Virus record (IMG/VR): IMGVR_UViG_3300045988_085028
Span: 1-21,572 of that record
Direction: 5' to 3' (one strand)
Source: a virus
Taxonomy: Duplodnaviria; Heunggongvirae; Uroviricota; Caudoviricetes
DNA length: 21,572 nucleotides
In this document: in pieces, positions 1-20,476 of the stretch
Layout of the letters: each line of letters starts with the position of its first letter
Position numbering within the stretch: position 1 is the stretch's first letter
Made by a program: the position numbers and the translations under genes
The notes under the pieces: model-generated
The model's input: only the letters and a program-made list of their open reading frames with translations
Databases searched by the model: none
Told to the model about the DNA's origin: nothing

Positions 1-76
1 TATTCCCCCTAATCAAACAACTATCAAGCCATTGTTCTTATGCGCATGATAGTTGCGAGTTGGCTTATAAACAATA

Positions 77-754
77 CTAAACCGCTTTGAGCGTTCCCCG
101 AACCGTACCGACAACATATATGTCAACTATAAGGTTACCGTTACCAGACGCTGCTGAGCTCAAGGTGCATCTAAGTACGCACCCATTTTCTGTCCGAGAA
201 AACGTTCTTACGTCGTAAAGAGTTGAATCTGGTTGACCAGGAATTGCCACACCGACAAGCTCTGTTATCACATTAGGAGTTGCAACCCAACCAGTATATG
301 GATACGTTACTGTCAAATTGACAAATGAAGAGCCGGCTTGAATTGGTACTGATAACTGCTTTCTTACTACTGTATTCAACTCCCCCATTGAGGACACAAG
401 AGAAGAGTCCGGGGTGATATGAGTCATCAGGTTCACGCTGTTCAGGTTGCGCGTAATGTTAACAGCACTAATGCGGTTGGAAGTACTTTCATCCAATACA
501 GCGCTATACGCAGACAGAGCAGATTCCGAAATGATAACGCGGTTGTTAGCACTGGTAGCAGTTGCTCGCACCAATCTGTAGGTTAAGCCATTACTGTAAG
601 CACCTTTAATGTTCTGCATCAGCACCTGGTGCGAGGTCGCCCCATCCCCTAAGTACAGGAGGTTCGCACTATCTGCCGTGTCCCCATACTGACCGTCATA
701 CACTACTTGCGTATTAAGGATGTTAACACCAAATGCCCCTGCAGGGGACACCAT
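77..754 (-). CDS. Hypothetical beta-rich (S/T/N/V/G-rich) protein, 225 aa; candidate moron or lysogenic-conversion gene transcribed away from the att core
   Basis: Uninterrupted 225-codon ORF with ATG at 752-754 (MVSPAG encoded by the att core itself) and an in-frame stop immediately upstream. A GGGAG sits about 11 nt upstream. No signal peptide or TM segment is evident. I do not recognise the family. It is the only ORF of 60 aa or more in 1-878 on either strand. Confidence 0.45.
   Translation of the reverse strand: MVSPAGAFGVNILNTQVVYDGQYGDTADSANLLYLGDGATSHQVLMQNIKGAYSNGLTYRLVRATATSANNRVIISESALSAYSAVLDESTSNRISAVNITRNLNSVNLMTHITPDSSLVSSMGELNTVVRKQLSVPIQAGSSFVNLTVTYPYTGWVATPNVITELVGVAIPGQPDSTLYDVRTFSRTENGCVLRCTLSSAASGNGNLIVDIYVVGTVRGTLKAV
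738..753 (+). other. Attachment-site core: 16 bp identical to the 3' end (T-stem/acceptor/CCA) of tRNA-Arg(CCU) argW, without the rest of the tRNA
   Basis: CCTGCAGGGGACACCA at 738-753 matches the recalled 3' end of E. coli argW (...GATTCCTGCAGGGGACACCA). The sequence upstream (...caaatgcc) does not continue as a tRNA T-loop, so this looks like an attP-type core (or an attR-like junction), not an intact tRNA gene. Confidence 0.5.
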
Positions 755-914
755 TTATCAGTTCGCTCCCATCCGTACCAGTCCGCAAAATCCCCTGAAT
801 ATCAAGCCTTCCGTAGATTTACAGTTCGTCATGGTTCGCGTCAGATTGTTGACAGCCGCACTCCATGACGGGTAAAAAGTGGATAAAATAATTTTACCCA
901 CCGGATTTTTACCC

Positions 915-2072
915 ATGCTCACCGTTAAGCAGATTGAAGCAGCAAAGCCGAAAGAAAAACCATACCGCCTACTCGATGGTAATGGCCTGTACCTTTATGT
1001 CCCTGTATCAGGGAAAAAGGTATGGCAGCTTCGCTACAAGATTGACGGTAAGGAGAAAATCCTGACCATCTGAAAATATCCGCTTATGACTTTGCAGAAG
1101 GCAAGGGATAAGGCATGGACTGCGAGGAAAGACATCTCGGTTGGCATCGATCCGGTAAAGGCGAAAAAGGCTTCGTCTAACAACAATTCCTTTAGTGCGA
1201 TTTACAAGGAATGGTACGAGCACAAGAAGCAAGTCTGGTCAGTAGGGTATGCGACTGAACTTGCAAAAATGTTTGATGACGACATTTTACCTATCATCGG
1301 CGTCCTTGAAATTCAGGATATTGAGCCGATGCAACTGCTGGAAGTAATCCGCAGATTTGAAGATCGCGGTGCAATGGAGCGAGCCAACAAAGCCCGCAGA
1401 AGATGCGGCGAGGTTTTCCGTTACGCTATTGTCACTGGTAGGGCTAAATATAACCCGGCACCTGACCTTGCTGACGCCATGAAGGGATACCGCAAGAAGA
1501 ACTTCCCATTTTTACCTGCCGACCAGATCCCGGCATTCAACAAAGCACTTGCAACATTTTCAGGAAGTATCGTATCGCTCATTGCTACTAAAATTTTACG
1601 CTACACCGCCCTAAGAACGAAAGAGCTTCGTTCCATGCAATGGAAGAACGTCGATTTTGAAAACAGGATTATCACCATCGACGCCAGTGTGATGAAGGGA
1701 CGCAAAATTCATGTGGTTCCTATGTCAGACCAGGTGGTTGAACTTCTCACTACGCTAAACTCAATCACCAAACCAGTATCAGAGTTTGTTTTTGCCGGGC
1801 GCAACGATAAGAAGAAGCCAATTTGCGAGAACGCTGTACTGCTTGTGATCAAACAAATCGGCTATGAAGGTCTGGAAAGCGGTCACGGATTCAGGCATGA
1901 ATTCAGCACGATTATGAACGAGCACGAATGGCCTGCTGATGCTATTGAAGTGCAACTGGCACATGCCAACGGCGGATCTGTGCGCGGGATTTACAACCAT
2001 GCTCAGTATCTCGATAAGCGCAGAGAAGTGATGCAGTGGTGGGCGGATTGGATTGATGAAAAGGTGGAGTGA
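915..2072 (+). pseudogene. intS: P4/IntS-family tyrosine integrase (about 385 codons) interrupted by an in-frame TGA at 1071-1073
   Basis: ORF-track segments 879..1073 and 1086..2072 are in the same frame and together read as one integrase: an N-terminal arm-binding (DUF4102-like) region MLTVKQIEAAKPKEKPYRLLDGNGLYLYVPVSGKKVWQLRYKIDGKEKILTI, then TGA, then KYPLMTLQKARDKAW and the catalytic domain. From memory this is close to E. coli IntS (CPS-53/KpLE1), which has TVGKYP where this window has TI-stop-KYP. The likely start is ATG at 915; position 879 is a GTG lying inside repeat motifs. The 328-aa downstream ORF alone would lack the arm-binding domain. Confidence 0.7.
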
Positions 2073-2089: not shown

Positions 2090-4084
2090 TTATTCAGCCT
2101 TAGCAAAAGTGGTCATAGTTGTTCCACTGAAAGTGAATGACCTGTCTGTAAGAGTAACATCCTGAATAGCAAAGTAATCGCCAACACCAGCGCCATTTAC
2201 ATAAAACTCGAATATCTCAGATGTATTTTCCGGAATAATATTATTAGCAATATAACACGTAGATAAAGAACCATTTGTTGATGGTAAAGTTCCAAATAGC
2301 GTTGCATCCGATGCAGCATATATCGAACTGCTTAAATAAATATTTATATCAACATTACTCTCATAAGTAACAATTAAGTACACCCGGTCGTTAACCTTCC
2401 ACCCTCTGTCTTTTATCTTAGTATTAAGTGATAGCTTGTTAGAACTAGGGTTCGTTACGGTATTAATGGTTATTTTTGCTCCTATTGAGTTGTATCTGCT
2501 TCTGGTTACTGTATTACCAGTATTGTTCATTGTATAAAGGATTGCCCTGCTTTCTGCAAACGTCCTCATATTGATCTTGCCTAAACAATCTCCTTCCATA
2601 ACTTGTGGGCCAGACACAGTTGCACCAATATAACAATCAGTAAATACAGCATGAGCCCTGTTGTCAGTGCTTGATGCAAGTAATGAAAGTTTAAAGTTGC
2701 CCTGATCTGCAATCCAGCAACTATCAACCTTAACTACAGCATCATTGTCAAGAACAACAAACCTTCCTCCCTCATTGTAATATCCTACAAAAGCATTTAC
2801 ACCGCTTATTTTTACTACTCCATCTGGAACCGTAAAGATATCGCCTTGTATCGCTTCGCCATAGTACCCGCCAACAATATTGGTCACTCGGGTATTTAAG
2901 TACATGCCATGCCCAATGCCGAACTCAAGGTCACATCCAATTAAGCTTAAACCTTCAATAGGGGAAGTACCAGAAGCATAAAAGGCATATTCACCGACCT
3001 TATTTGATGCAAATCCACAGTTATTGAACGTTACGCGGTTGTTAGCCCCAGCAAGGTGAACTCCGCGATTTGGCGCAGGAACAAAAGAACAGCAATCATA
3101 GGTATTAAGCCAGTCGTTTATAGTATAGAAGTTCGCCACCGCGCCATTGATGAAACGACAATTATGGGTTCTTCCTAGGTGAACATATTGAATTCGGCAA
3201 GGATAGTTGGCGATGTTGTTCCCATCAACTGTAACGTGAGAGATAGATGTGCTACGTCTTATAGAGTCAGTTTCGTAGTACATGTTGACAACTGCCTCTC
3301 CAGTGAACCCACTCCCCGCAATAATGAATGACTTCTCAACGCCATCCCCGAATAGGTCAACAGTGCCTATTGTTAAATCAACTGGTGACTTAACATAGTA
3401 AGTTCCTGCAGGGACAAACAGCCTCTTTCCTGCCGATAAAGCAACTGCTGCAGCAGCATTAAAGCTAGCTGAGTTATCTGCCGCTGGATCACCAGTAATG
3501 GGGAAAAATTGAGCAACAGAAATATAATCTGCTACCGTCACTTCGTACCATGGCAAAGCAGGAGATGACGGAAGAGTGCCACTACCACCGGTGTAGATTT
3601 TATTATTATACCACCACCAGTTATCAACATTAGATAACGCCCCCTCCTGCCATACACCGCCTAACGAGAAATCAAGACCGTAAGAAGTAGCTATCTGACT
3701 TAATGATAATGTTGCCCCTCTGTCAGAAGCTAATTCTTGCCTTAATTGGTCAGGGTCATACTTCAGGACATTAGGAAAATAGAACTGCTGCGCACCGTAC
3801 GCATCATAAACAGCCATAGAATGGCCTTGCACAGTTACGAATTTGGCAATCTGTCCGTTATATACAGGATAACCAGCAGCGTTAATGATGATTGGTTGCG
3901 AAACAGGAACGTGAGAACCGTCTTCGTTCTCTACATAAACCGGAATCTGGTTTTCAGTATTTACCGGGTCAGTGTCAATTTTACCGATATAAATTTTGCC
4001 ATTAGCTACGGCTTTAAAAGAACGCGCCATAGTGAAGAGTTGCGAAGGCATGCTAACTACAACATTGGCTGTAATGTCTGTCAT
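2090..4084 (-). CDS. Tailspike protein: P22 gp9-type N-terminal head-binding domain fused to a divergent beta-helix receptor-binding/depolymerase domain (664 aa)
   Basis: The N-terminal ~110 aa ([42 protein letters not shown]...VLKYDPDQ) match the conserved P22/Sf6 tailspike head-binding domain from memory. The remainder is not P22- or Sf6-like, is AT-richer, and has asparagine/glycine-ladder character typical of right-handed beta-helix depolymerases. A GGAG lies about 9 nt upstream of the ATG at 4082-4084. Confidence 0.9.
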
Positions 4085-4140
4085 TTAATTTGCTCCAGAT
4101 ACAAGGAATCGCCGCAGCGTGGCTACGGTGAATTTTGGGC

Positions 4141-4166
4141 ATAAAAAACCCAGCCGAAGCTGGGTC
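4141..4166 (-). terminator. Rho-independent terminator upstream of the tailspike, downstream of the ancestral ant reading frame
   Basis: On the - strand: CCCAGC-TTCG-GCTGGG (+ strand 4149-4164) followed by TTTTTTAT (complement of 4141-4148). Position matches the ant/gene 9 terminator arrangement of P22. Confidence 0.6.
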
Positions 4167-4354
4167 GTTGCGTTGGCTATCTGTCAGTAGTTATGTACTG
4201 AAGGAGGTAATTCTTTATTCTTAAGTCTCATCCATGCAGAAAGATTCGTTGGTCCGTCTGGCTCATTGATATCAACATCTCGTGTGTGGTTTATTAAAAC
4301 GTCTCTCGCCATCCCGATAACATACGAAAACTCATGACCGTAGTCGTAGCATCT

Positions 4355-4416
4355 GCCGGAATAGTTAGATTGTATTTGTTTTAATGCCGGAATAGTTAGA
4401 TTGTATTTGTTTTAAT
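4355..4416. repeat. Perfect tandem direct duplication of a 31-bp unit (gccggaatagttagattgtatttgttttaat x2, followed by a partial gccgga)
   Basis: Units at 4355-4385 and 4386-4416 are identical. The unit is 31 bp (not a multiple of 3) and lies at the 3' end of the ant reading frame. Confidence 0.9.
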
Positions 4417-5093
4417 GCCGGATACAGTTCGCGGAATAATGCCTGTGATCGGTTGGCATAATCCCATAACCATACAAGGCTGTTTGCTTCTTTTGCAGAA
4501 AGCTCGTTGGTTTTCTTCTCTTGTTTGCCAATGAACTCACCTTCAAGCACTACCCTGTGGATGTACTCTACGGCCAGCGGGATTTGTTCAATTGAAAGTT
4601 CATCAATGCTGTCAATACCAAAACGCTGATGAACCATATTGTATGCATCGTCATAACGAAGTCCTTTCTTTCCTACCAGCATGTTTACTGCATCGCGTAG
4701 CGGTGTTCTTTCCTCAACAGTGGTTTTCTTTCCTTTTACATACTCGCCATGTTTGCGAATTGAAGGCAGAACTTCTGCTGTTACCCACTTGCGGAATTTG
4801 TGCGGGACTGAACCTTTATTGACTGCATCGCGGCAGCGCAGAACCAATGTATACATACCTGATTCGCTCACAATGCTTAGATTCTGCTCACCACCAAGGG
4901 TGTAACTTAAAGTTACTCCCTTTTCATCGTCATCAAGTGCAGTAAGCGCCTTGCGTGAGTTAGTCAGGGTTAAAGCATCACAAACATCTTTTGCTACAAA
5001 CCACGGCTCACCGCACTTGTTGATGACGCGGATTTCACTGTCGCCGAATTTGAAGATGGTGAAATCGTTTTGTGCCTTTGCTATACTTTTCAT
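4365..5093 (-). CDS. ant: Antirepressor Ant (BRO-N/KilA-type), C-terminally truncated by the 31-bp duplication (242 aa as encoded)
   Basis: Sits downstream of arc on the same strand, as in P22 immI. N-terminal region is BRO/antirepressor-like. AGGAA lies about 9 nt upstream of the ATG at 5091-5093. The last 7 codons (GIKTNTI-stop) are read from the second repeat copy in a shifted frame. Confidence 0.8.
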
Positions 5094-5152
5094 GTCAATA
5101 TTTCCTAATCCGATTTGTTGATGCCGAAGCCCTGACTGTTACAGCAGTTGGG
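5083..5152 (+). ncRNA. sar: Candidate sar-like antisense RNA (about 68-70 nt) complementary to the ant ribosome-binding site and start codon
   Basis: Putative promoter inside the ant 5' end: -35 TTGAAG (5049-5054), 16-bp spacer, -10 TATACT (5071-5076). Putative 3' end at hairpin GAAGCCC...GGGCTTC (5116-5147) followed by AACTTTA. The implied length matches the 68-69 nt P22 sar RNA, and the position (arc-ant intercistronic region, antisense) matches too. Confidence 0.45.
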
Positions 5153-5161
5153 GCTTCAACT

Positions 5162-5323
5162 TTACGCACCAATGCGCCCTTCCTTCTTAAAGCTTTCCAT
5201 TACTCTCTGATAAATCTCAGAGTTAACAGACCGACCATTCTCTTCCGCCACCTTGCGTATCAAATCCAATACTTCTTTAGGCCACCGCAAATTGAACTGC
5301 GGCATCTTGCTCATTCCTTTCAT
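5162..5323 (-). CDS. arc: Arc repressor (53 aa, ribbon-helix-helix)
   Basis: MKGMSKMPQFNLRWPKEVLDLIRKVAEENGRSVNSEIYQRVMESFKKEGRIGA is near-identical to P22 Arc from memory. GAGGTG lies 3 nt upstream of the ATG at 5321-5323. The ORF-track entry 5162..5533 is an upstream in-frame extension with no support. Confidence 0.9.
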   Translation of the reverse strand: MKGMSKMPQFNLRWPKEVLDLIRKVAEENGRSVNSEIYQRVMESFKKEGRIGA

Positions 5324-5338
5324 ATTCACCTCACAATA

Positions 5339-5386
5339 TAGGTCCACGGTGGACCTATTGAGAATATAGTAGACTGCTTCTATCAT
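5339..5386. promoter_or_regulatory. Divergent immI control region carrying the Mnt operator (palindrome TAGGTCCACGGTGGACCTA, 5339-5357) and the Arc operator (ATAGTAGACTGCTTCTATCAT, 5366-5386), overlapping the Pant/Pmnt promoters
   Basis: The 19-bp perfect palindrome matches the P22 Omnt sequence. The adjacent 21-bp site is the P22 Oarc sequence with one or two substitutions. Both lie in the 90-bp gap between the divergent arc and mnt starts. Confidence 0.75.
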
Positions 5387-5413
5387 GTCAATACACTGAC
5401 TTGGAGTAATGGC

Positions 5414-5668
5414 ATGGCTAGAGATGATCCGCACTTTAACTTCCGCATGCCTTTGGAAGTGAGAGAAAAATTGAAATTCAGAGCAGAGGCGAATGGGAGA
5501 TCCATGAACTCCGAGCTGTTGCAAATCGTCCAAGATGCTCTATCGAGACCATCTCCTGTAAAAGGTAATCGCAATGAAGCTGAACGATTAGCCGAGATGC
5601 AGGCTGAACAGTTCAAGTCTGTGGTATTTGAGACACTTAAAAACATGTATGGCAAGGATGCAAAATGA
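5414..5668 (+). CDS. mnt: Mnt maintenance repressor (84 aa)
   Basis: MARDDPHFNFRMPLEVREKLKFRAEANGRSMNSELLQIVQDAL... matches P22 Mnt from memory. GGAG lies 8 nt upstream of the ATG. Its stop overlaps the next start (ATGA). Confidence 0.9.
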   Translation: MARDDPHFNFRMPLEVREKLKFRAEANGRSMNSELLQIVQDALSRPSPVKGNRNEAERLAEMQAEQFKSVVFETLKNMYGKDAK

Positions 5669-6246
5669 TCGATTACAACCCAGCAAAAAAAGAAATCATC
5701 GCAGCTAAAAAGTGCCTAGAGCAGATGAAATCATCTACAAACCATGATGATTTTGAAATGCACTGGCGAGAATGTCTTGGGCATATAGAAAAGTCTTTCA
5801 GTAAGTTGCTCTGTGCAACAAAGCCGGTTAGTGGAAAATTTAGCAGCCACTTCAACCAAAAGTTCATGCTTAGAAAAACAGACAAAACACTTGCTTACCT
5901 TCACCAGGCAAGGAATGCTGATCATCATTCCACTATGGAAATCTCAAAACTTGAACCTCCTTATACTACTCTTGGGGCATTTCCGGGAGCAAGAAGTCAT
6001 TATATTAAAGAGTTAATCATTGATTCAACAGGGGAAATAGCAAAATACGAAGGCGACCCTATGATAGTTGAGTTTCATCCAGCAACAACTATGCCTATAA
6101 CCGTAAGAAACCAAGGCAAAGATTATCCACCTCCAACAGAACATCTTGGCGAAAAGCTTGTTGATATACATCCATCTGTTCTTGCCTATCTCGGTATACA
6201 ATTTTATGAAAAATGGATAGATGAGTCGTGTGCAACGTTTAGATAG
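5665..6246 (+). CDS. Hypothetical soluble protein (193 aa), translationally coupled to mnt; function unknown
   Basis: ATG at 5665-5667 overlaps the mnt stop (TGA 5666-5668). Uninterrupted ORF in an AT-rich segment. No TM segments. I do not recognise the family. Confidence 0.6.
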   Translation: MIDYNPAKKEIIAAKKCLEQMKSSTNHDDFEMHWRECLGHIEKSFSKLLCATKPVSGKFSSHFNQKFMLRKTDKTLAYLHQARNADHHSTMEISKLEPPYTTLGAFPGARSHYIKELIIDSTGEIAKYEGDPMIVEFHPATTMPITVRNQGKDYPPPTEHLGEKLVDIHPSVLAYLGIQFYEKWIDESCATFR

Positions 6247-6463
6247 TTATTTTTGATAATTTCAAGTATTTCCTCTTGACTTTGATTTACCCAAACGTGA
6301 TCACACTCATGAAACCAGATTATGCTTCCTGTTTCGCCTTGTGCAATATAGGTGATCATGTTTTCATTAACAATTATTACTGAGTTATCATGTGCGCAAT
6401 TTAGTTTTATCAATTCGCATATCCTATCGTGACAAAGTAACTAGAAAAACTAAAGAGGTTGGT

Positions 6464-6958
6464 GTGTCTGATTCTATGAGTTACGCTGTGCTAGTTGCCG
6501 CAACTCTATTTATGGGGATAGGGTTGCAGATTGCGTGGTTCTTTTTTTCTAGTTTTATTAAACGCAAAAGAATTGAATCAAGGATATCTGAGATTTCTAT
6601 TGCTATAGGGAAAAATGCTGAAAATCCAGAGAATGAGGCCTGCGCACTGAATTACCTTAAAGAAAAGTTTTCCCCTGAAAAATTTGAAAATAGAATTACT
6701 GATGCTCTTGGATTGGTAATATCAGTAATTCATACGCCACTAAGTTTGCTGATAACAGTGTGGTACTTCGCCATGATCGCCGGAAGAATATTTGGTTTAA
6801 TGAATATAGAGCCTGTAGTTCTTTGGGTTCCAATGATACTGCAACTGTTGTTAAGCGTTGCTATCTTTATTTTTTCTGTTTTTATAAAAATTGTCTTTGG
6901 AAGATACCCCGGAGAAGCTAAGGGATTTAATAAAGAATTCATAAAAACTATAAAATAA
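6464..6958 (+). CDS. Predicted inner-membrane protein (about 4 TM helices) at the position of P22 sieA; candidate superinfection-exclusion protein
   Basis: Hydrophobic segments [47 protein letters not shown] and [24 protein letters not shown]. The ORF track starts at GTG 6392 with no RBS. GTG 6464 has AAAGAGG 6 nt upstream; ATG 6476 is the alternative. Stop at 6956-6958. Lies between mnt and gp16 like P22 sieA, but sequence similarity to SieA is not established. Confidence 0.55.
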
Positions 6959-6980
6959 ATGCCGTCCTTGGCTTACAGTG

Positions 6981-8822
6981 CTACTGCCGGGTCGCTTCGT
7001 TAGCTAAGAGCGGGCGCACGGCAGTAGCAGCCTGATTTAGCGCTCTTTCATAAGCCGGCGTTCCAGCTTTAGTGTTTGCCAGACGTAAGAGAGCATTCCT
7101 TGCTACTTTGGACTCATACAAGCGCATCATTGCACCGAAACCAGCCTCAATCCCCATTGATACGCCAAGAGTCGCAGTTGCGCCAATCGTCCTTATCCTG
7201 TTGGCTTGCGATTGCCCCGTCTGAGTTACTACATTTGCGGTGTCTGACCTTGCTGTTTGCTGTAGAACTTCATGAAGAGCATCAAGCTCTTTCATGTGCT
7301 TTCCAGAAAAAATAGTGTTGTAAATTTCACCGCCTGACTGAGATTTCAGCTTATTAACTTCAGTGATGAACTTGGCTGGAGAGTCACCGGCCTTTTCCGC
7401 TATTTTGCTGACGTAAGCTGCACGCATAGCATCTTTCCCTTTATCATCCAATGCGCTCCAGATTCGTTTCACGTCAGATGGTTTTCTGCTTAATACAACG
7501 GTATTTATAAGTTCAGGACTGGCTTCACTGCTTGCCTTGTTGAGCTTGTTAGCAATGTTTTTATTAAGCACCTTATTATAAACGTTTGCATAATCGGAAT
7601 TTGCTTTAAGGTATTTTGCTGCGTCTGATGCACCGAGGTTTTTAGCAACTGCGTTACGAAGGTCTTTTGACATTGCATTCTCTACCATATTGGTAGCTGC
7701 TTTTGCCTGGTTGGGGAAGACCATAGCATCTCCCTGAACATTAGATCTAAATGCTGTTCTGTGCTGACGCAAGAGATCAAACGTAACATCCAAATCAGTT
7801 GCAGGGTTTGCTAATTCTTCACGTAGGTTACGCAAGGATGTAAGCAGGCTTTGATTGGCAGACGTCCCAAGTCGTTCCTGTCTTGCGATCGCTGTATTCA
7901 GAGCATTCATAGTATTTGTGGTATCAACTGCGGCATTACCCATTTTATTGGTGACGTCATTGATAACAGCGCCAGCGGCATCCTTCCGCCCCCTTAACGT
8001 GGTGGTCAGAGATTTCACCACATCATCAGGGTTGTACTCACCAAAACGATCAAAATAATTACTTACCAGCTTACTACGCGTTTCATATTGCTCCGCTCGC
8101 TTTGAGCCTGTCCCGAGCAAAGCCCCCTCGGCATCCTGAGTAAGTCCGCGAGTGAAAGCATTTTTCGGCGGGATAACATCAGATGTCATTGGTGTCACGC
8201 CCATCGATTCTGATGTGGCAATTTTCTTCGCCACTTCTGGCGCAATATCACCTTTTATAGCCGTTATTCCACGCCCTATTCCCTTTGCTGCTGCGGAAAG
8301 AACACCCTGAGCGGCAAGGTTAACTCCGGCATTTTTAGCTGCATTTTGTGCGAAATCGCCTTTCTGATTTGCGGCCTCTGCCAGCGATCCAATAGCCATG
8401 CTTCCTGCCGTTCCAACTCCTGGAACTAAATACCCACCAATTGTTTCACCGGCTTGTGCGTATGGGTCTGTCGGTCTGTCTACTGGACGATAAACATCAT
8501 CCAAAACTTTTGGCCCACCAAGCCCCTGGCTGATTGCATTAATCAGACTTGCGCCACCCTGCAATACGTCAAATGGTATGTTTACCAGACCACGACCAGC
8601 CTGCTCTGCAATTTTCCCTGCACTTTGACCACCTGTGAGCCAATCGCCAGCTTGTTGCATCAATGATGGTTCTTCCCGTGTTGGTGCATTATTGGCCTGA
8701 TTAACTGTTTGTTGCTGAACAGCCTGACCAGCAAAATACTCATCAATGGCGGTGCCAATATCTTCGGTGCTCGTACCATCAGGGAAGGTAAATGTCTTAC
8801 CGTTTGCAGTTACTTTCATCAT
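6981..8822 (-). CDS. Ejection (DNA-transfer) protein gp16
   Basis: 613 aa, begins [16 protein letters not shown] like P22 gp16 (about 609 aa). Last of the gp7-gp20-gp16 trio. Start overlaps the gp20 stop. Confidence 0.85.
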
Positions 8823-10225
8823 TCCACCGTAAATTGAATGCCTGATTTTGAGGTATATGATCCAACCTGATTCCTTGGTTCTCCTGAAGGTGTCGAATCT
8901 TGTGCTGGCGCTGCGTCAGTATTCATTGACATATACCGCTTAACGGCACTCCCCAATGATTCACCTTTTTTAACATCCAACCCCAATATCTGACCGCCAT
9001 TACGCGATTGTCCTGGATTGCCATTCGCGCTCATCCACTCGGCTTTAAACTCATTAAACTGCGCGTTTCGTCGCTCAAGGTTTGCCATCGCATCAAGCCA
9101 TCTTGCGACCGTCTCAGGGTTATCCATGTCAGTTGGCGCACCCTGTCGAACGATCTCAACGTCTTTATCCGTTGCTGGGCCGGGAGGTAGGAATTTAAGA
9201 ACCTGACTGTTAACAAGGGCATTTTGGCGAATGCGCAAATCACGCAATGTTGTATCGCTTCCGGTAAGTTTTGCGAACATGTTCTGTGCGTTACCGAACA
9301 AACCTGTCGTTGGTTTTTCTGCTCTGAACTGTTGAGCAAGCGCACTCATAGAATTGGCTGAGTTTGATGATGCTGTAGCATTGTTTACAGCCGTCTCGAT
9401 GCCTTTTTCCATGTTTACTGACAGCTTAGGTGCTTCGCTAATCAACTGCTGAGCCTTTTCCTGCGCTTGCTGCATCTTAAACCCGAACTCTTGCTGATCC
9501 AGAGCCAAGCGTTGTGCTGCGATATTGTGCCCTGTCATTGCTGACTGATAGGAAAGGTTTTGCCCTCTCGCCTGAAGTGCCTCGCCAGCCTGATTGCTGC
9601 GGATTGTCTCTGCCAGCCTGCCTCGGTCAATCTCACGACCAGCCATCTTGTCCTGAACATTGAAGTAGTCAATCGGACCGAGAGCAGCCATCCCAAGGTG
9701 ATCAACAAACTCACCAAATCCTGAAGGATTCTGCTGATACATCTGAGCAACGCTGTTAGGGTCAACACCGACGCGAGTCAGTTCCTTGGCGTTGTTTTGC
9801 AGCCATGATTGCATTGCTTCTGGAGACGATGACGCAAGGCGTGCGCCAGCCGCTAAGGTGCCGATAGAATTGCGCTGGTCTTCATCAATGAATCCCATGC
9901 CTTTACGAACGGATTCAATCTGGTCTGGATATTGAGTAGCCAACTGACGCAAAGCACCGCGATCACCAGACGCATAAGCATTAGCGTACGCCTGCTGAAA
10001 TTCTTTCTGCCGCTGAGCCTGCTTTTCCTGCTGAAACACCCCTGCAATGCCTGAAAGGCCTTGCAAAGCAGTAAGCCCAACATTGTTAGCGCCTGAACGC
10101 TCAATATCATTGTTCTGCCTGATAAGCTGAAGCGTATTGCCGATGTCATTTACGCTCGGAGCGTTTGAGTTGACGCCGCCGATACCAGCTAACAATCCGC
10201 CATTTGATCCTTGCCAAGTAGCCAT
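8819..10225 (-). CDS. Ejection protein gp20
   Basis: 468 aa (P22 gp20 is about 471 aa), [10 protein letters not shown]... N-terminus, conserved position between gp7 and gp16. Confidence 0.85.
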
Positions 10226-10234
10226 GATTACCCC

Positions 10235-10927
10235 TTAAAACAACGAGCCAAGCAATCCGATACCAGCACCAATGCCAGCGCCCCAAGGTGTTGATGTTCC
10301 CAAAAGGCTGGCAAGACCTGCACCGGCAATCGCACCAGACGTTCCGCCACTAATTGCTGTCTGAAGACTTGATGGTTTGTTGGCATTAGCAGCGGCAAGA
10401 GCTGCGCTTTGCTGTGCAATGCTGCTCATGTTGTTGGCGTACGTCTGCCCGGCGTTTGCCTGACCTTGCAGAGCACCAAGCCCAACGTTTGCCAGATTGT
10501 TGTAATTGCTCATCTGGTTTGATAACCAAGACTGACCGAGAGTCGGCGCGATCGTAGCCAGTTGATTGCTTGTGGCTGTCGAACCAAGTCCTCCCGTAGC
10601 CTCCGCAGCAGCAAGACTCTGGTAACGAGCCTGACCTGCAAGGTCTTTATACTGCTGAGAGTTGTAATACTGATTAAGTGCCTGCCCCTGACCTTCTAAA
10701 CTGGAAAGGTTCTGAAGCTGGTTAACATACTGCTCCGCAAGAGGCGTGAACGGAGCAAGGTTTTTCATGATCGTCTGCCACTGCTGATTTTGCAGGTCTG
10801 CGGCATACTTCTGAGCTTCTGCTGCATACTTTGCGCTTTTATCAGAGCTACCACCTTTCCCGCCTTTTTCAGGGCACCAAGGTTCCTCGCCGCGCAGTTT
10901 TCTGCCCAGCTTAAATGCATATAACAT
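10235..10927 (-). CDS. Ejection protein gp7
   Basis: 230 aa; MLYAFKLGRKLRGEEP...GGKGGSSDKSAKYAAEAQKYAADLQNQQ and the glycine-rich C-terminus closely match P22 gp7 from memory. Confidence 0.85.
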   Translation of the reverse strand: MLYAFKLGRKLRGEEPWCPEKGGKGGSSDKSAKYAAEAQKYAADLQNQQWQTIMKNLAPFTPLAEQYVNQLQNLSSLEGQGQALNQYYNSQQYKDLAGQARYQSLAAAEATGGLGSTATSNQLATIAPTLGQSWLSNQMSNYNNLANVGLGALQGQANAGQTYANNMSSIAQQSAALAAANANKPSSLQTAISGGTSGAIAGAGLASLLGTSTPWGAGIGAGIGLLGSLF

Positions 10928-10929
10928 GG

Positions 10930-11385
10930 CTATCTCCCATGATTCAGGAAGTCGATTAGTTCTTCGCGTGTTGCGCTGTAAAAAGTCACGTCATCCACGC
11001 CTTTGAAGTATTTCTTGATGGTTCCTACACGCTTAAGGCCAATCATTGCGCAGTACATCTGCCCGTGGCGGAATTTGCGTGCAGCGAACGATGTTACGCA
11101 CTGAACGGTGGTGTTAGTCAGAATGTATCGCCAGAACGCCAGCCCGATTTCCTTGCTGAATCCACGAACCTCTGGCAGGTACATGGCGTGGCAATCGAAT
11201 GTCAGCGGCTGAATCTCCTGATAGTAAACAATGCCGCCGAACTGCCCGTGCACGTTCACCTCAAAGTAACGGCATTCAGGCTTGTAGTCGTATCCATCAC
11301 CGTTGTTGCTTCCGGCAATAATGTCAGGGTGATTTCCGACAGCTTCGATCAGGTCGATGTTTCGCGTTGGTTTGAATGTAATCAT
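10930..11385 (-). CDS. Head/ejection-associated protein gp14
   Basis: 151 aa, at the conserved position between tail needle gp26 and gp7. Start overlaps the gp26 stop (ATGA). Confidence 0.7.
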   Translation of the reverse strand: MITFKPTRNIDLIEAVGNHPDIIAGSNNGDGYDYKPECRYFEVNVHGQFGGIVYYQEIQPLTFDCHAMYLPEVRGFSKEIGLAFWRYILTNTTVQCVTSFAARKFRHGQMYCAMIGLKRVGTIKKYFKGVDDVTFYSATREELIDFLNHGR

Positions 11386-12086
11386 CAGTCAATCAGCCCA
11401 TGTAATCTAAGTGCCGTTTCAAGCGCCAGAATACGCTGCCGCGCCTGCTGCAAACCTGTAGCGAGAGCCGCGACTTCGGATTGTGTGTACGTAGTGCCGA
11501 CCGTGTATGACTGGTTAGCGTTGAATGAGCCAAGAAGAGGTGTACCTGTGGCTGCAGTCCATCCGGTCTGCCTTGCTCCAACGACCTGAATTCCATCAAC
11601 TGAATATGATGTTTTTACATCCAGCGGTGACGCAAGAGACTGCGATTCGGTTACGGTTTTCGATACGTAATCACTCTTAATGCCAGAGACATCGTTTTCT
11701 ACGTTATCCAGTCTTTGGTCAACAGTGACCAGATGCGCCTGAATATCGATAACCTCATCCAGCAAGTAATCAACATCGCTACGCAGTACGACTATCTTCC
11801 CTTCGGCAGTTGTTAACCTGACCTCAAGTAGATTTATCGATTTTGTGTTTGCGGTGATTCTTGCATCGTGATCTGCCAGTTCGACGTCCTGTTCATCGTT
11901 TTTTACCTGGGCATCGTAAGCGCCCTGACCAGCCTGATTTGCCTTCCCGGCAATTGCGCCGACATCAGCCCCCTGATTAATGACATACAGCAGGTAAGAC
12001 TGGCTGAATATATTGCGTGGCAAAATTGAAGTATCAAGGCGCGTAGCCTGAACCGCGACAGGATTATTCAGTGATGAATCCGCCAT
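11385..12086 (-). CDS. Tail needle protein gp26 (trimeric coiled-coil plug)
   Basis: 233 aa. The N-terminus [36 protein letters not shown]...[31 protein letters not shown] and the C-terminal ...ALRLHGLID match P22 gp26 from memory. Confidence 0.85.
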
Positions 12087-13504
12087 TACTCAATCCTTAT
12101 CTGGCAGCCTGACAGAGTGACAGGTGACTTCGTGATAACGCGCAATTTGAAACCGACATTTTTCCTGATGCGCCCTACTCGCTTCCACAAAACGCGTTTG
12201 TCGTAAACGAACGGTTCATTCTGCTCAATCATCTGCTCACGACCGTAATTGATGCCGTCAGTGGTTGCAGAGAGGAACAGGCGGTCAGCGTACTGCGCAA
12301 CGCCAGTTGAAGATTCAACTTCAAGGTCGAAAACTCTGGCGTTATCTGCTTTGAACAACGGAGTAAACAGCAGGTGTTCCTGTTGCTTGTCGTACTGGCT
12401 GCTGATATCGAACTGCAATTTCCCGGTCACGGACTCCAGCTTATCGCCGCACGTTATCTGATTGCCTTCGTAAATGAAGTCGATAGCGCGGTACACATCG
12501 TCATACAGGCCTGTTTTCAACACACACCATTGCGGACCATTGGCGCTTGAAGATGCGTCGTACACGAGAACATGGCGCGGAAGGTGGATAATCAGCAACT
12601 CATGAGCATCAAATCGCAGCGATTCCATCACACCATCAGCCAGTTCATCAGCAGTGTAGGAGCGGAGGATTTTCTCAATGCTCGCGCTGGCGATTGGTGA
12701 CACCTGACCGGAGCCGATGATGTATACAGACGGCGCACCTGTTGCCGGATTGCTGATGAACGCATACGAATCAGCAAACGGCGTTTTGCAGTAAGTCCCG
12801 GCAATGCCTTTCTGCACCATCAGCGATGGCTGTGCGACATACAAAGCAGCACCAACTGTGGTTGCACCAGTCAGGGAGAAATATTCAATCGTCGATGAAC
12901 CAAAGCAGACGATGAAGTCTCGCCATGTGCCGATACCGATGATGCCGTCCGGCTGCGATTCTGCGCGATATTGTGCGCTGTAACGGTCAGGATGCGATTC
13001 GTCTTCAAGGTCAGTGATAAACCATGAATCAGTGCCGTCTTTTGACCACGCATAACGCCCACGTAAGCGCGTAATGTCACGAACAGAACCTAACTCATAC
13101 TGCGTAAACCCGCTGTCTGCAGGCCAGTTTGAGACGGTTTTAACCGTGCCATCATAACGGTATTCGACCAGTTGCCCGTTAACGCCTACCGCCTGTGATG
13201 TTCGACCATGCGCCATTGATACGCGACCACTTCCGGCAACATCACCGACTTCACTTTCGCCCTTATACAACTTGCCACCGCAAACGCGATAAACAGCATT
13301 CTGCGCCATGTTGTGCTCGACACCGCGCGATACACCATTCACATCAGAACGTTTGGCAATGCCCGGGAATGAGCGAAGATATCCGCTGCTGTTGAGGATT
13401 TCTTTGGGTGTAGCCAGCATATTCACTGGCAGATAGTCGATATAGTCGGCGTTTCGAAAGTCTTTGCCGACACCTTTCATAAGCGGAAGTTGCTGAATCG
13501 GCAT
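12086..13504 (-). CDS. Tail hub/head-completion protein gp10
   Basis: 472 aa, the same length as P22 gp10, at the conserved position between gp4 and gp26. Confidence 0.8.
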
Positions 13505-13513
13505 TTATTCACC

Positions 13514-13975
13514 TCACGTACTCGGATCATCTTTCTCGATGTAAAACCGATTCCACGTAAACGCGCTTTTGTTACCACTACCGCGAGGCATATCATTTCG
13601 CCGCTCAAGTGGTGGTATTTTGGTTAAAGCGATGCAGATTGTCTGATATGCACTGTCAGCAGCGGTAAGGAGAGCGTCTGACGGCTGAATGACGTTATCC
13701 ATGCACACCTGCACAGCGAGCTTCAAAGCGACGCCATCATTTGCCCATGCAGGGATACCTGAATCATCGTCAGGTAACGGCATGATGCCGTTTTCTGTAT
13801 CAGCAAACTGATATCCAAGCTCGATACCTTTAGCCTGCCATGCTGCCATCATGTCTTCGAGGTCATTAATGGCATCTTCAATTGCCTGAGGGTCAGCATC
13901 TGTCAACGTGGCATTGGAATACAGCCCGGCTTTTCGTAAAGCCTTAAGAACGAGATCACCCTTCGTTTTCGCCAT
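13514..13975 (-). CDS. Head-completion/tail adaptor protein gp4
   Basis: 153 aa. MAKTKGDLVLKALRKAG...TLTDADPQAIEDAINDLEDMMAAW and the C-terminal ...MPRGSGN motif resemble P22 gp4 from memory. Confidence 0.75.
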   Translation of the reverse strand: MAKTKGDLVLKALRKAGLYSNATLTDADPQAIEDAINDLEDMMAAWQAKGIELGYQFADTENGIMPLPDDDSGIPAWANDGVALKLAVQVCMDNVIQPSDALLTAADSAYQTICIALTKIPPLERRNDMPRGSGNKSAFTWNRFYIEKDDPST

Positions 13976-14144
13976 CTTCTTCCGCCTTAGCCACTTTATG
14001 CTTCGTTGCGGTTTCTTCAGGAGTTTTTACCCAGCCTTTTTTCAGGTGAGATTTAACTTCTTCGTCATCAACAATGATGTAATCGACAGCAAACTGACCA
14101 CAGGTGATCATGTTGCCAGGCTTATAGAGCATTGTTCGTGCCAT
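13956..14144 (-). CDS. Small hypothetical protein (62 aa) between coat and gp4
   Basis: ATG at 14142-14144 is preceded by GGGAGAAG. The ORF-track start at 14183 would run through the coat terminator hairpin, so the shorter start is preferred. Overlaps the gp4 start by 20 nt. Confidence 0.4.
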   Translation of the reverse strand: MARTMLYKPGNMITCGQFAVDYIIVDDEEVKSHLKKGWVKTPEETATKHKVAKAEEDGENEG

Positions 14145-14155
14145 TGTCTTCTCCC

Positions 14156-14180
14156 AATAAAAATGGGGCCGAAGCCCCAC
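14156..14180 (-). terminator. Rho-independent terminator immediately downstream of the coat gene
   Basis: On the - strand: GGGGC-TTCG-GCCCC (+ strand 14165-14178) followed by ATTTTTATT. It begins 7 nt after the coat stop codon. Confidence 0.65.
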
Positions 14181-14185
14181 CAAAA

Positions 14186-15439
14186 TTACTGCCCGGCAAT
14201 AACGATGCCCGTATATTCAGGAACAAGTACAGAGCAACCGTACAGAGTGGTGAAACGAGCAGTGGTTACGCCTTTGATGTGGTCGAAGGCGTAAGACATG
14301 ATCAGCGTAGCGCCCTGCTCGGTGGTTGCTGTCATTACCTGTGGACCCTGACCAGTCGGGAACGCCAGTTTTCCGTACATCAGTTCAACAGAACCATCAG
14401 CCCAGAACAGGTTAGCCGGTGCTGCATTTTTGTTGAGAATGGTAATTGCTGCACCATTTGCCGCGTTAGCATCAACGTTTGCATATGGACGGCTGGCAAC
14501 ATCTGCGTTGTCAGGCGGCAGAATTTTCGGGGAGATAGTTACTGTCGTTCCGCTTACTGCCAGAACGCGGAATACCTGCGGCTGCCCGGTGGTGTCTTTG
14601 GTGATCTGGTGTACAGAATTCACGCCAGCAATGGTGAACGCATCGCCAACCTGCAAACCAGATGCAGATACCGTAATGGTCCCCTGTCGGTTATCCACTG
14701 GCATATCGTTGGCATCTTTCGCTTCAACCTTGTGCGCAGGTTCAGCCGCCAGCGTCAGGGAAGTTGCTGTACCTTTCGGAACACGACCAGAAATATCGGT
14801 CTTGTAGCTATCGAAGGACGCAACCGGAGGGATCTGCGCTTTTTCGTATGCTGTCAGGGTTGCGCCCTGAGCATAGGCACGGTGACCAAGCTCGCCAGCA
14901 AGGTCTTTGTAGTTGAAGGGGTTCCAGAAAGAGCGACGGTTGATACCCTGAGGTACACCAATCGCCGTCATGGTGGCATCAATACCTGCCGCACAGTTCC
15001 ACAAATCACGGCCCTGTGAACCAGTGGTTGAGTCAGCCATTGTGATCACGTTAGTAGCACGCTGCGTGACCATGGAAATCAGGTCAGAGTCAATCTGTGC
15101 AGCAAGGCGCATACCTGCGGCGCGACCAGCTTCAGTTTTATGTTCCGGGTCACGCATTTCACGCGCATCCAGAGTGTACAGAATGTTTTTCGGCTCCTTG
15201 AACACAGAAGGAACAAGGCGCTGAACCAGTGCTGTTGGCGTTTTGCTGCTGAGGTCGAGGCCTTCCTCAATATTCATGTGGTAATGCTGCGGACGATACA
15301 GAACATCACCTGCTCGCTGCATTGCTGTATCACCGGGACGGAATTTTTTAGCGTTACGGGAAACTACGCAGGCGGCCTCAAAGCCTTCAACGTAGTTTTC
15401 GAACATGATTTCAAGGTCTTTTGCTAATTGGTTAGCCAT
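14186..15439 (-). CDS. Major capsid (coat) protein, P22 gp5 family
   Basis: 417 aa, between scaffold and gp4 in the conserved morphogenetic order, with a strong terminator after it. Sequence is diverged from P22 coat, so the call is by position, size and context. Confidence 0.8.
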   Translation of the reverse strand: MANQLAKDLEIMFENYVEGFEAACVVSRNAKKFRPGDTAMQRAGDVLYRPQHYHMNIEEGLDLSSKTPTALVQRLVPSVFKEPKNILYTLDAREMRDPEHKTEAGRAAGMRLAAQIDSDLISMVTQRATNVITMADSTTGSQGRDLWNCAAGIDATMTAIGVPQGINRRSFWNPFNYKDLAGELGHRAYAQGATLTAYEKAQIPPVASFDSYKTDISGRVPKGTATSLTLAAEPAHKVEAKDANDMPVDNRQGTITVSASGLQVGDAFTIAGVNSVHQITKDTTGQPQVFRVLAVSGTTVTISPKILPPDNADVASRPYANVDANAANGAAITILNKNAAPANLFWADGSVELMYGKLAFPTGQGPQVMTATTEQGATLIMSYAFDHIKGVTTARFTTLYGCSVLVPEYTGIVIAGQ

Positions 15440-15457
15440 GCTTAATGCTCCGATAGG

Positions 15458-16351
15458 TTATTTTTTTGCCTTTTTAGCGGCGAAATACGGCGTCCAGTCA
15501 CCAGTTTCCAGCGCCTTGGCTTTCAATTTGTCGATGTTGTTGATTACTGCGCCGTTGCTCCCCTTAACTGTCGGGGTTGTGGCTGCCGTGGTTTTTGCTT
15601 TTGGCATGATTCTGGCCTTCGATTCGATACGTTCCAGCAGACGACCAATTGCTACGGGGTTGGTAGCTTCTGCCAGTTGCTTGCGCAGTTCAGCGTTGCG
15701 ACCGAGTGCCAGAACAACGATTTCCGGCTTCTCTGACTCAAACAGGATCGCGTTTTGTGTCTCGATGGGGATTTCCTCGAGTACGGCCTGCTCAGCTTCC
15801 TGATAGCCAGGAACTTTGAGAGCCTTAACACGTTGCTGATATTTGGATAATCGCTCTTGATAGGCAGCCTGAAGCTCCTGCTCCTTCTGCTTGCGAGCCA
15901 TCTCCTGTTGCTGGTACTTGCCGTTATCCTCTGCCCACTTAGCCATGCGTTGCTGGTAGATTTCTTCATCGAAACCGATGTCCTCATCGTCCAGTTTTGG
16001 CATTCGCGGTGGTTGAGTAATTACCGGCTGCTGCTCGACGGGTTTCTGAGACTGACGCATCAGCTCTTTCAGCTCGCGGTCTTTCTCTTTAATCGTCTTG
16101 CGCAGGTGTTTTACCAGTCCATGCTCTGCGCCATCTTCGCTGGTTGGCGAATCCAGCTTTTCGTCACCAAAGTAGAATTCCTGTTCTGATTCGTCGTCAT
16201 CAGTTTCAGTAGCTTCCTCTGCATCATTGCCGGAGGACTCACTGCCATCTTCTGTTTCGACTTCTTCAGCCAGTTCGACATCATCAGGAATCTGCTCTGA
16301 CGCGTCGGTTTCGATTTCAACTTCTGGTGTGTTTTCTGCCATCTGGTCCAT
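15458..16351 (-). CDS. Scaffolding protein
   Basis: 297 aa. Very acidic N-terminus (D/E-rich), Q/E/K-rich coiled-coil middle and a basic C-terminal tail (...FAAKKAKK). Lies between portal and coat as in P22 (gp8). Confidence 0.75.
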   Translation of the reverse strand: MDQMAENTPEVEIETDASEQIPDDVELAEEVETEDGSESSGNDAEEATETDDDESEQEFYFGDEKLDSPTSEDGAEHGLVKHLRKTIKEKDRELKELMRQSQKPVEQQPVITQPPRMPKLDDEDIGFDEEIYQQRMAKWAEDNGKYQQQEMARKQKEQELQAAYQERLSKYQQRVKALKVPGYQEAEQAVLEEIPIETQNAILFESEKPEIVVLALGRNAELRKQLAEATNPVAIGRLLERIESKARIMPKAKTTAATTPTVKGSNGAVINNIDKLKAKALETGDWTPYFAAKKAKK

Positions 16352-16441
16352 TTGTTACCCCTGTTTACTCGATGTTCAGCCCATCGGAAGGCAATAGGTT
16401 GCCAGGCCTCATAAAGACAGCCATTGCACGTTATGGGTTAA

Positions 16442-18640: not shown

Positions 18641-18641
18641 A

Positions 18642-20057
18642 TCAACCTACACCACAAGGAATTGAGTAACTGGAATAGTCGGGTTGCGCAGCCGACTCCG
18701 GGCAATGCATACACATCATCAACGCATCAGCCAGGTTAGGAGATGGAATACCGAGCTTCTGCTTCATTTCGACCTTAGTCATTAGCTCCAGCTTCCCGTT
18801 GTTATTGAATTTGCGCTGAATCTGCGTCAGTTCTGCAAACAGCTTCTCCAGTATCTTCTCGCCTATCGCTTCTTTGTCGAAACTCAGCATGTCGTCGGGA
18901 TCTGCATACTCACCGTGAACAACCGCCCGATATGTCAGATACAGCCTGTCAGCCAGCGCGTAATAGAATTGCGCTCGCTTATTGCGGAATACATCGCCAA
19001 TAGTGCGAACGTTGTCACCCTGTACGACTTCATCAGCCCATGCTCCGGCCTGATATGGTGCATCTTCATCGAATGGCGATTCACTGCCCTTGAACATCGT
19101 GGCGGTGATTTTCTTGCCGGAGAACGCTTCCGTTGTCTGTCTGCGTAGCCCCGCACCGACGCCATCACCATCCCACAGGTAATGGTCAGCGCCGTCTTCA
19201 ATCGCCAGCGAAGTAGCCCAGTCAGCACCCTCGTTGATGTCCATCAGCAGACCTTCGGCAATGCGCTTAACTACCGAACCGTGACGCGATGCGTAACCTT
19301 TAGCATCTGGCCCTGTATCTGATGGGTCATGCGCAGAGACAACCGCGCCCTTCGCTTTCCATCCGAGTTTCTTGTGCGCATCGGTTGCGGCTTCAAGCCA
19401 TTCACGTTTGATGATTGCCATATCACTTGCGCTTACTGGCTCACCAAGCCAGATGTGACGATACAATGTCGGATTTCTGCGTTTGCACTCTTCCATCTCC
19501 AGACGGAGAACTTCAGGAAAGTGCGGGTTGTCGGTGTAGTTCACCGTCAGCAGACAAATATCATCGGGAGGGTTTACTACGAATCGCTGATAGGTATCGT
19601 CGAGGATGTTTTTCGGGTTGAAGCTCACCCATATTTCGGAAAATGGCTTGCGGATGGTTGGTATCAGGATATCCCATGATTCCTTCGTTACCGCTTCCGC
19701 TTCCTCCACCCAGCAGATATCAATGCCTTCGAGCGATTTAATCTTCGTCGGGTTGTTTTTGATGCCGTAGAACATGAATTCAGCATTCGTTCCGAGATGA
19801 CGAATCATGGAACGCTGAATTTCAAACTCGGCCGAATACCCTTCCCGCTCTATGGTGTCTTCAAGCAACCGGATTACCGAATCGCTGATACTGTTTTGCA
19901 GTTCACGAGCGCAGAGAATACGCACAGGCTGCCGACGCGCCGCTTCAACAAGCAGCCTAGCAATTGCCCATGACTTACCGCTACCTCGACCGCCTTTGGC
20001 GACTTTGTAGCGATGCGCCTCAATGAACGGTTCAAAGATAGGATTAATCGAGGTCAT
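18642..20057 (-). CDS. Terminase large subunit (Sf6 gp2-like)
   Basis: 471 aa with Walker A KGGRGSGKS near the N-terminus. The N-terminal sequence MTSINPIFEPFIEAHRYKVAKGGRGSGKSWAIARLL matches Sf6 TerL from memory. Start overlaps the TerS stop (ATGA). Confidence 0.9.
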   Translation of the reverse strand: MTSINPIFEPFIEAHRYKVAKGGRGSGKSWAIARLLVEAARRQPVRILCARELQNSISDSVIRLLEDTIEREGYSAEFEIQRSMIRHLGTNAEFMFYGIKNNPTKIKSLEGIDICWVEEAEAVTKESWDILIPTIRKPFSEIWVSFNPKNILDDTYQRFVVNPPDDICLLTVNYTDNPHFPEVLRLEMEECKRRNPTLYRHIWLGEPVSASDMAIIKREWLEAATDAHKKLGWKAKGAVVSAHDPSDTGPDAKGYASRHGSVVKRIAEGLLMDINEGADWATSLAIEDGADHYLWDGDGVGAGLRRQTTEAFSGKKITATMFKGSESPFDEDAPYQAGAWADEVVQGDNVRTIGDVFRNKRAQFYYALADRLYLTYRAVVHGEYADPDDMLSFDKEAIGEKILEKLFAELTQIQRKFNNNGKLELMTKVEMKQKLGIPSPNLADALMMCMHCPESAAQPDYSSYSIPCGVG

Positions 20058-20476
20058 TTTCCGAATAGAGTGCTCATCGGTGATGTTTCAATCTGGATTG
20101 CGCCACCGTCTTTGCCGACAAGCTCATTAGTTACCTTGTCGCCATACTTACGGGGATTCATTCTGGCCAGCGCCCATTTGCGGGTATCAACGCGAAGTCT
20201 TGCCTTTGCCACCTCGGCAGCATCTGGAATCGCATTGTCAGCAATTTCGAATATCTCTTCGAAAATAGAATCAGCTCGTGCCTCAGTTGCCTTCGCGTAC
20301 TTGTCGCGAAAATCCTCATGCTTTGCCAACCAGCGGAAAACAGTGGACTTATCCGGCATACCAGGACGCTTACATACTTTCAGCAAACTTTCGCCAGAAG
20401 AAAGCAACGAGCAGATATCGTCAGCCACCTCCGGCATATAATCAGAGGGGCGACCAGCTTTTGGTTCAGTCGCCAT
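20054..20476 (-). CDS. Terminase small subunit (Sf6 gp1-like)
   Basis: MATEPKAGRPSDYMPEVADDICSLLSSGESLLKVCKRPGMPDKSTVFRWLAKHEDFRDKY... matches the Sf6 small terminase from memory. The ORF track begins two codons earlier (MNM..., 20482); the second ATG has better spacing from GAG. Confidence 0.85.
   Translation of the reverse strand: MATEPKAGRPSDYMPEVADDICSLLSSGESLLKVCKRPGMPDKSTVFRWLAKHEDFRDKYAKATEARADSIFEEIFEIADNAIPDAAEVAKARLRVDTRKWALARMNPRKYGDKVTNELVGKDGGAIQIETSPMSTLFGK

Follow-up and report, generated by a model that had tools for sequence, protein, structure and literature searches.

Among the closest described systems is the attL/IntS/TorI module of KplE1 (CPS-53) in Escherichia coli K-12 (PMC2951348; PMC3509656). 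Experimental dissection of KplE1 attL identified five TorI sites of the GTTCG/GTCCG/GATCG type, arranged in two blocks, and four IntS arm-type sites (P'1–P'4), all containing TAAA (PMC2951348). The intS promoter, PintS, has the -35 element TTGACA and the -10 element TAaAAa, the latter overlapped by P'1, and its transcription start is mapped (PMC2951348). In K-12, intS is repressed by both IntS and TorI, and mutation of the TorI site I5 abolishes TorI repression while raising basal promoter activity (PMC2951348). The four arm-type sites there mediate the autorepression by IntS and contribute to intasome assembly. The related phages HK620 and Sf6 (AF335538, AF547987) carry the site in attP form. 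On its left arm, torI/hkaC and a pair of GGGTAAAAT sites lie no more than ~90 bp from the core, an arrangement common to HK620, Sf6 and the attR of strain 2018-01-1CC.

The window examined here, 21,572 nucleotides of viral DNA in total, contains at 738–914 what is very probably a hybrid attachment-site relic derived from the IntS module of KplE1/CPS-53, HK620, Sf6 and CUS-3, with a history of deletion, renewed integration and transfer proposed below. Its core is that of KplE1 attL. Between core and intS ATG, the two differ at 3 of 180 bases, none of them in P'1–P'4. KplE1 and the window are also alike in the position of P'1 over the -10 box, the TTGACA -35 element, the two TorI blocks and the spacing to the intS ATG. 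In contrast to KplE1, the window lacks an argW body left of the core, carries a stop at codon 53 of intS, reads GATTG rather than GATCG at I5, and represents a copy inside a lambda-att prophage instead of one at argW. Rightward from 739 it is 96.6–97.4% identical to the HK620 and Sf6 attP regions. Leftward, where those phages have hkaB/hkaC (hkaC being torI) and the GGGTAAAAT sites, the window has a tailspike fragment instead.

The original prediction assigned the 16 bp at 738–753 to the 3' end of tRNA-Arg(CCU). Exact search and alignment confirmed that this sequence, CCTGCAGGGGACACCA, is identical to the final 16 bases of argW tRNA-Arg(CCU) as annotated in K-12, and the same match to the argW 3' end was obtained in UPEC-245U and 2018-01-1CC. 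The common core of real attP and attB sites is 15 bp rather than 16 (CTGCAGGGGACACCA, 739–753, plus strand) and is annotated as 'attP core' in HK620 and Sf6. Base 738 is C in the window versus T in both phage attP sites; a T likewise precedes CTGCAGG in true attP and normal attR. C738 is supplied by the tailspike flank and, together with the 15-bp core, makes up the 16-mer. A chance match was ruled out because homology to IntS-type phages continues for 1.3 kb: in a megablast comparison with phages (HK620, Sf6, CUS-3 and relatives) it starts at 738/739 and runs rightward through the integrase gene at 96–97% identity. Only one IntS core-like site occurs in the whole window when up to three mismatches are allowed. 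The junction also produces a perfect 12-bp palindrome, CCCCTGCAGGGG, at 736–747.

ARAGORN found no tRNA in the 21.6-kb window. The search for a hidden or partial tRNA was likewise negative, with no Rfam match in 400–1100 even at E≤10. The predicted absence of a tRNA body left of the core is thus borne out. Opposite the integrase, where a tRNA-Arg body abuts the core of an IntS-type attL, the tailspike fragment is found, and the prediction was right that this is no attL with an intact tRNA.

The integrase-side arm contains three copies of GGGTAAAA within 45 bp, at 870–877 (plus strand), 892–899 and 907–914 (both minus strand). The motif occurs four times in the whole window against 0.54 expected, a count reached in 0 of 100 shuffles, and three of the four copies fall within 870–914. 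A degenerate fourth arm copy, GGATAAAA, lies at 881–888. Once it is counted, the layout becomes two direct followed by two inverted copies, without the strict alternation of the prediction. The imperfect palindrome predicted between core and integrase gene can be read directly at 879–901 (GTGGATAAAAT / ATTTTACCCAC). Mapped by sequence, the four copies (870–914) correspond to the IntS arm-type sites of KplE1 (PMC2951348): P'1 (870–877, plus strand), P'3 (892–899, minus) and P'4 (907–914, minus) are of the GGGTAAAA type, and P'2 (881–888, plus) is GGATAAAA. As in KplE1, P'1 extends over the -10 box of PintS. The HK620 'attP' repeat_regions map to 869–915 of the window and, taken with the HK620 'prophage excision' promoter, to 849–915.

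TorI and promoter positions were transferred from K-12, where they are numbered from the intS ATG (PMC2951348). For the excisionase (RDF) TorI, block I1;2 (759–786, plus strand) contains GTTCG at 761–765 and GTCCG at 781–785, and block I3;4;5 (822–849, plus strand) contains GTTCG at 824–828 and 834–838 and GATTG at 844–848. Four of the five sites are intact and I5 carries one substitution, C to T at 847, which is one of the three differences from K-12. GATTG is also the sequence of I5 in P13-6, versus GATCG in K-12, HK620 and Sf6. PintS (849–878, plus strand) consists of the -35 box TTGACA at 849–854, a 17/18-nt spacer and the -10 box TAAAAA at 873–878. A promoter is annotated at this position in HK620 and Sf6, and the -35 box is invariant across 16 aligned sequences. 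A simple promoter scan of the window did not report PintS, returning a weaker overlapping match, because the -10 box TAAAAA breaks the scan's T-at-position-6 rule; the assignment relies on the published transcription-start mapping (PMC2951348). The arm thus has the composition of an IntS-type attL, with four TAAA sites over PintS and five TorI sites. Judged from sequence, the repeats are the IntS arm-type and regulatory sites already known for the KplE1/HK620/Sf6 module. The original prediction had proposed such functions for them, correctly, and they are already in print through the KplE1 experiments (PMC2951348) and the HK620 annotation.

Conservation of this arm was assessed in 23 IntS-like loci gathered from other Enterobacterales. 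A complete tRNA-Arg(CCT) abuts the core in 22 of them. The order -35 / GGGTAAA / GGGTAAA / TTTACCC / TTTACCC / ATG is maintained while the spacers drift; across 15 loci from other genera, conservation was 0.83–0.96 for arm sites versus 0.56–0.71 for spacers. Where the integrase is 58–62% identical to IntS (loci L020, L028–L031 and L035), the motif becomes GGGCATA / TATGCCC with an unchanged layout, ~70 bp upstream of int. Site and integrase change together, as expected of a protein-binding site, and arm site, RDF site and proteins appear to covary across lineages. These same loci also adjoin tRNA-Arg(CCT), and their upstream pentamer repeats differ from GTTCG. Two further loci showed individual features. 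In Xenorhabdus hominickii, the 9-bp unit AAATCCCTT is repeated in tandem ~100–180 bp upstream of int, occupying the gap between tRNA-Arg and the int-proximal repeats. Mixta mediterraneensis has an IntS-like integrase and conserved arm sites without a tRNA-Arg (ARAGORN) or an upstream core, and may be another non-tRNA junction.

The intS gene of the window (915–2072, plus strand) encodes a P4-family tyrosine integrase and is a pseudogene, with an in-frame TGA at 1071–1073 (codon 53) where relatives have GGA. The intact intS frame of an IntS-type attL is therefore lacking. P13-6 has the identical stop, recorded by RefSeq as 'internal stop', and 2018-01-1CC and ETEC4090 have GGA. An integrase followed by phage genes had been predicted to the right of the core; the integrase is indeed of the IntS type, but its pseudogene status had been missed. 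The codon-53 stop splits intS into a 52-aa ORF with an Arm-DNA-bind_3 Pfam match and a 328-aa ORF (1086–2072) with the core-binding and catalytic domains. The 3' end of the gene (1989–2063, plus strand, 75 bp) recurs as a 100% identical copy ~3.3 kb leftward, beyond the window and beside a lambda-type arm. This left copy was located in P13-6 (18722–18796 of record L003) and in the metagenome scaffold L071, and the two copies bracket an imported cassette.

Left of the core, 77–754 on the minus strand encodes the C-terminal 225 codons of a truncated P22-type tailspike, ~residues 474–694 of a 694-aa protein, derived from an older argW prophage (prophage A). The fragment is 76% identical to residues 474–694 of the 694-aa tailspike of ST12468 (BLASTP), and over DNA 1–429 the identity to genes labelled 'phage head-binding domain' is 96.7%. 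Translation placed a stop immediately upstream of its ATG (752–754, minus strand). This ATG was made by the junction, from the CA of the tRNA CCA end and the first T of the phage arm. RefSeq annotates a shorter fragment ORF starting at an internal Met. The resident P22-like prophage has an intact tailspike of its own at 2090–4084 (minus strand, 664 aa, Pfam Head_binding and pectate-lyase), convergent with intS and 98% identical to the UMNF18 tailspike. Duplication of this gene as the source of the left fragment was rejected because the two sequences are unrelated.

The 225-aa fragment had no tblastn match in 50,697 phage records. Among 5.8 billion proteins, nothing was retrieved but the fragment and a shorter copy of it, with no intact allele sharing the same central part. 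The ancestral breakpoint sequence was therefore deduced from the 76%-identical homologue. At the breakpoint, the ST12468 tailspike reads ccaaatgcTcctgTaggggCGTTA and the window ccaaatgcCcctgCaggggACACC; tailspike and att core agree over 10 bp at 738–747 (plus strand). Tailspike homology reaches 747 and core homology begins at 738/739, so the junction lies within this 10-bp core look-alike (CCTGYAGGGG), which is in direct orientation with attR. A deletion endpoint would fall within 738–747, with a pseudo-core presumably present in the ancestor, as the 76%-identical homologue suggests. Lambda-family integrases are capable of aberrant recombination at secondary sites, and microhomology-mediated deletion of prophages is also known. 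An endpoint in a 10-bp core look-alike, directly oriented with respect to attR, would be in keeping with either process.

The torI-side arm motif GGGTAAAAT is absent from 600–737, and no homology to the torI-side arm was found there. This bears on the phage-form alternative of the original prediction, in which an IntS-type phage in circular form would account for the window, the left flank being that phage's own second arm. A core without a tRNA body, followed by integrase and phage genes, does have this appearance, and the HK620 and Sf6 attP sites likewise sit just upstream of int. However, torI/hkaC and both GGGTAAAAT sites are missing left of the core, the flank is instead an N-terminally truncated tailspike, and the integrase gene has a premature stop. 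Furthermore, in an identical scaffold and in six complete genomes the structure is found within a prophage integrated at the lambda site beside ybhB. We give a live attP next to no credence, and the phage-form designation was abandoned.

The relic interpretation draws on genomes in which the junction, or its constituents, occur in four observed states. In ST12468, prophage A is intact at argW with the order argW-intS-acyltransferase-tailspike. UPEC-245U retains a 3.3-kb remnant, argW-intS-acyltransferase-tailspike fragment-core, followed by the host csc/dsd genes; the right junction of this remnant is 99.3% identical to window 1–753, and no prophage B is present. In 2018-01-1CC the order is argW-intS_A-acyltransferase-tailspike fragment-core-intS_B-prophage B-attR. 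Here, prophage B is full and P22-like, ending in torI, a normal attR with two GGGTAAAAT sites, and dsdC, and an intact argW tRNA lies 3.3 kb further left of the junction. The 2018-01-1CC junction is identical to that of the window over the core and 70 bp to its left, and 98.6% identical over window 1–1000. Over the core and the 70 bp to its left, the tailspike-fragment/core junction is the same in the array, the UPEC-245U remnant and the window. The copies in 2018-01-1CC and UPEC-245U lie at argW with full intS_A and the tRNA further left, whereas the window copy is preceded by an 84-bp intS_A remnant and a lambda-type arm. As to its origin, the prediction of a junction between tandem elements was apt, since in 2018-01-1CC this junction separates a small remnant from a complete IntS prophage. 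Its left flank is a deletion endpoint and not a native attR arm.

The remnant in UPEC-245U helps to discriminate between two routes to this junction. Phage B could have integrated directly into CCTGYAGGGG within the intact prophage A tailspike, the remainder of A being lost later. The pseudo-core microhomology would fit this route equally well. Tyrosine integrases, as exemplified by lambda Int, use core-like secondary sites, and by analogy the IntS of phage B may have done so. In UPEC-245U, however, prophage B is absent and the core connects the fragment straight to the host DNA that follows argW, so direct integration requires an additional precise deletion or excision. Better targets would also have been at hand in the two argW cores flanking prophage A, at its attL and attR. 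We therefore consider direct integration into the tailspike unlikely and favour deletion within prophage A as the source of the junction.

In the fourth state the junction adjoins ybhB, in the bio region, and not argW. It was found there in P13-6, ETEC1716, ETEC4090, ETEC1706, ETEC4073 and EM20-18-50. Left of the acyltransferase, these strains have an 84-bp intS 3' remnant, a lambda-type P arm and the 15-bp lambda core, which was seen beside ybhB in P13-6, ETEC4090 and EM20-18-50. Both prophage ends were inspected in two strains, P13-6 and EM20-18-50, and in both the lambda core is repeated at the ybhC side. Beside ybhC, EM20-18-50 has an intact excisionase and lambda-type integrase and P13-6 a truncated lambda-type integrase. 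The P13-6 genome has a single IntS-arm location and therefore lacks a partner att site or a second intS. In UMNF18, the P22-like prophage at this same lambda site lacks the insert and runs lambda arm-intS 3' remnant-tailspike. The window form corresponds to the UMNF18 form plus ~3.3 kb comprising the acyltransferase, tailspike fragment, core and most of intS. The lambda arm with its intS remnant is found in many diverse genomes, E. coli B strains included, at 91–99% identity; the junction-bearing form was found in only nine complete genomes.

Independent IS insertions and deletions mark the relatives of the window that share this cassette and prophage (ETEC4073, ETEC4090, EM20-18-50 and P13-6). 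IS100 sits within the tailspike fragment, IS1 within or next to the acyltransferase, and IS2 in the late region. In EM20-18-50, intS is reduced to 93 bp and fused to erf. The prophage element is decaying in several lineages.

Megablast against complete E. coli genomes yielded no record covering at least 80% of the window. An exact protein match led to the metagenome scaffold L071 (40,991 bp; ENA ERZ28577305, scaffold_412), which has no mismatches to the window over 6,754 bp. To the left of the window, L071 continues for 1,544 bp, taking in the acyltransferase, the 84-bp intS remnant and the lambda-type arm, and stops after 43 bp of host DNA from the ybhB side. Its lambda-type core, TTAGTATAAAAAGGC, has one mismatch to the 15-bp lambda core found at both P13-6 prophage ends. 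A stop 43 bp into host DNA is as expected if the assembly graph branches at an att site. From the L071 arrangement and the intS stop common to P13-6, the window was assigned to the lambda-att form. In the replicon matching the window, the IntS structure is 2.3 kb from the edge of a prophage whose bounds, judging from L071 on the ybhB side and from P13-6 at both ends, are lambda att sites at ybhB/ybhC. A functional att site of the carrier prophage would lie at the host boundary and recur at the other end; the window has a single IntS core-like site, and the P13-6 prophage is bounded by the lambda core. The lambda-type int of this particular prophage is predicted from its relatives P13-6 and EM20-18-50. 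Window 2090–21572, on the minus strand, appears to be an intact P22-like region, with genes for the tailspike, an ant/arc/mnt immunity region, sieA, ejection proteins, head, portal and large terminase; the matching region of P13-6 is disrupted.

These findings also address whether the site could be a degraded attL still at argW, its tRNA body deleted or overwritten. In favour of such a location, the IntS arm is present in 1,900 of 5,426 E. coli genomes and adjoins argW among the top matches listed. Against it, a tailspike fragment can still be recognised in the left flank, which is no decayed tRNA, and the argW tRNA of 2018-01-1CC is intact 3.3 kb further left. At the host junction, which the original prediction had suggested checking, L071 runs past the lambda-type arm into ybhB-side host DNA. 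A degraded attL is accordingly a very unlikely explanation.

We propose the following history for the relic hybrid site. A P22-like prophage A would have resided at argW in the order argW-intS-acyltransferase-tailspike. CCTGYAGGGG in its tailspike gene may then have recombined with the attR core, deleting most of prophage A and leaving intS-acyltransferase-tailspike fragment-core. This could have occurred by aberrant IntS/TorI excision at a secondary site or by microhomology-mediated deletion. A second IntS phage, B, would have integrated into the remaining core to give the present junction, although the deletion and the integration of phage B could have taken place in reverse order. Homologous recombination would subsequently have moved the acyltransferase-tailspike fragment-core-intS segment into a P22-like phage with a lambda-type Int and an attachment site at ybhB/ybhC. 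The simplest partners would be a UMNF18-type phage and an argW array like that of 2018-01-1CC. One crossover may have used the 75-bp intS 3' end that such phages carry beside the tailspike, with the other in the late genes.

Within a lambda-att phage, the IntS module would be redundant and decaying. Signs of decay are the TGA at codon 53, common to P13-6, the mutated I5 and the lack of a partner site in the window at up to three mismatches. We infer that the module is now inactive passenger DNA, remote from the prophage boundary. It is probably retained through linkage to the acyltransferase (Pfam Acyl_transf_3), itself likely a lysogenic-conversion gene.

Core and arm are intact, and IntS supplied in trans might still act on the relic. 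A bolder proposal holds that the relic is still recognised by the IntS/TorI of another argW prophage, and that integrase-mediated deletion at a core look-alike within a tailspike gene, with later homologous capture through a 75-bp int remnant, is a recurrent route; we think this improbable. If true, incoming phages could use the relic as a landing pad or other sites could recombine with it, resulting in nested prophages or argW-to-lambda-att rearrangements, and O-antigen acyltransferase cargo genes would move recurrently between phages with unrelated integrases.

The locus is a new instance of known phenomena and implies no new biochemical mechanism or element class. The genome series documents the steps by which ordinary recombination can transfer a prophage remnant with an acyltransferase gene between integration systems. 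Prediction of prophage ends from a tRNA fragment and an adjacent int would mis-call this element, whose real boundaries are the lambda att sites. A tRNA-derived core with an adjoining integrase need not be the attachment site used by the prophage in which it lies.
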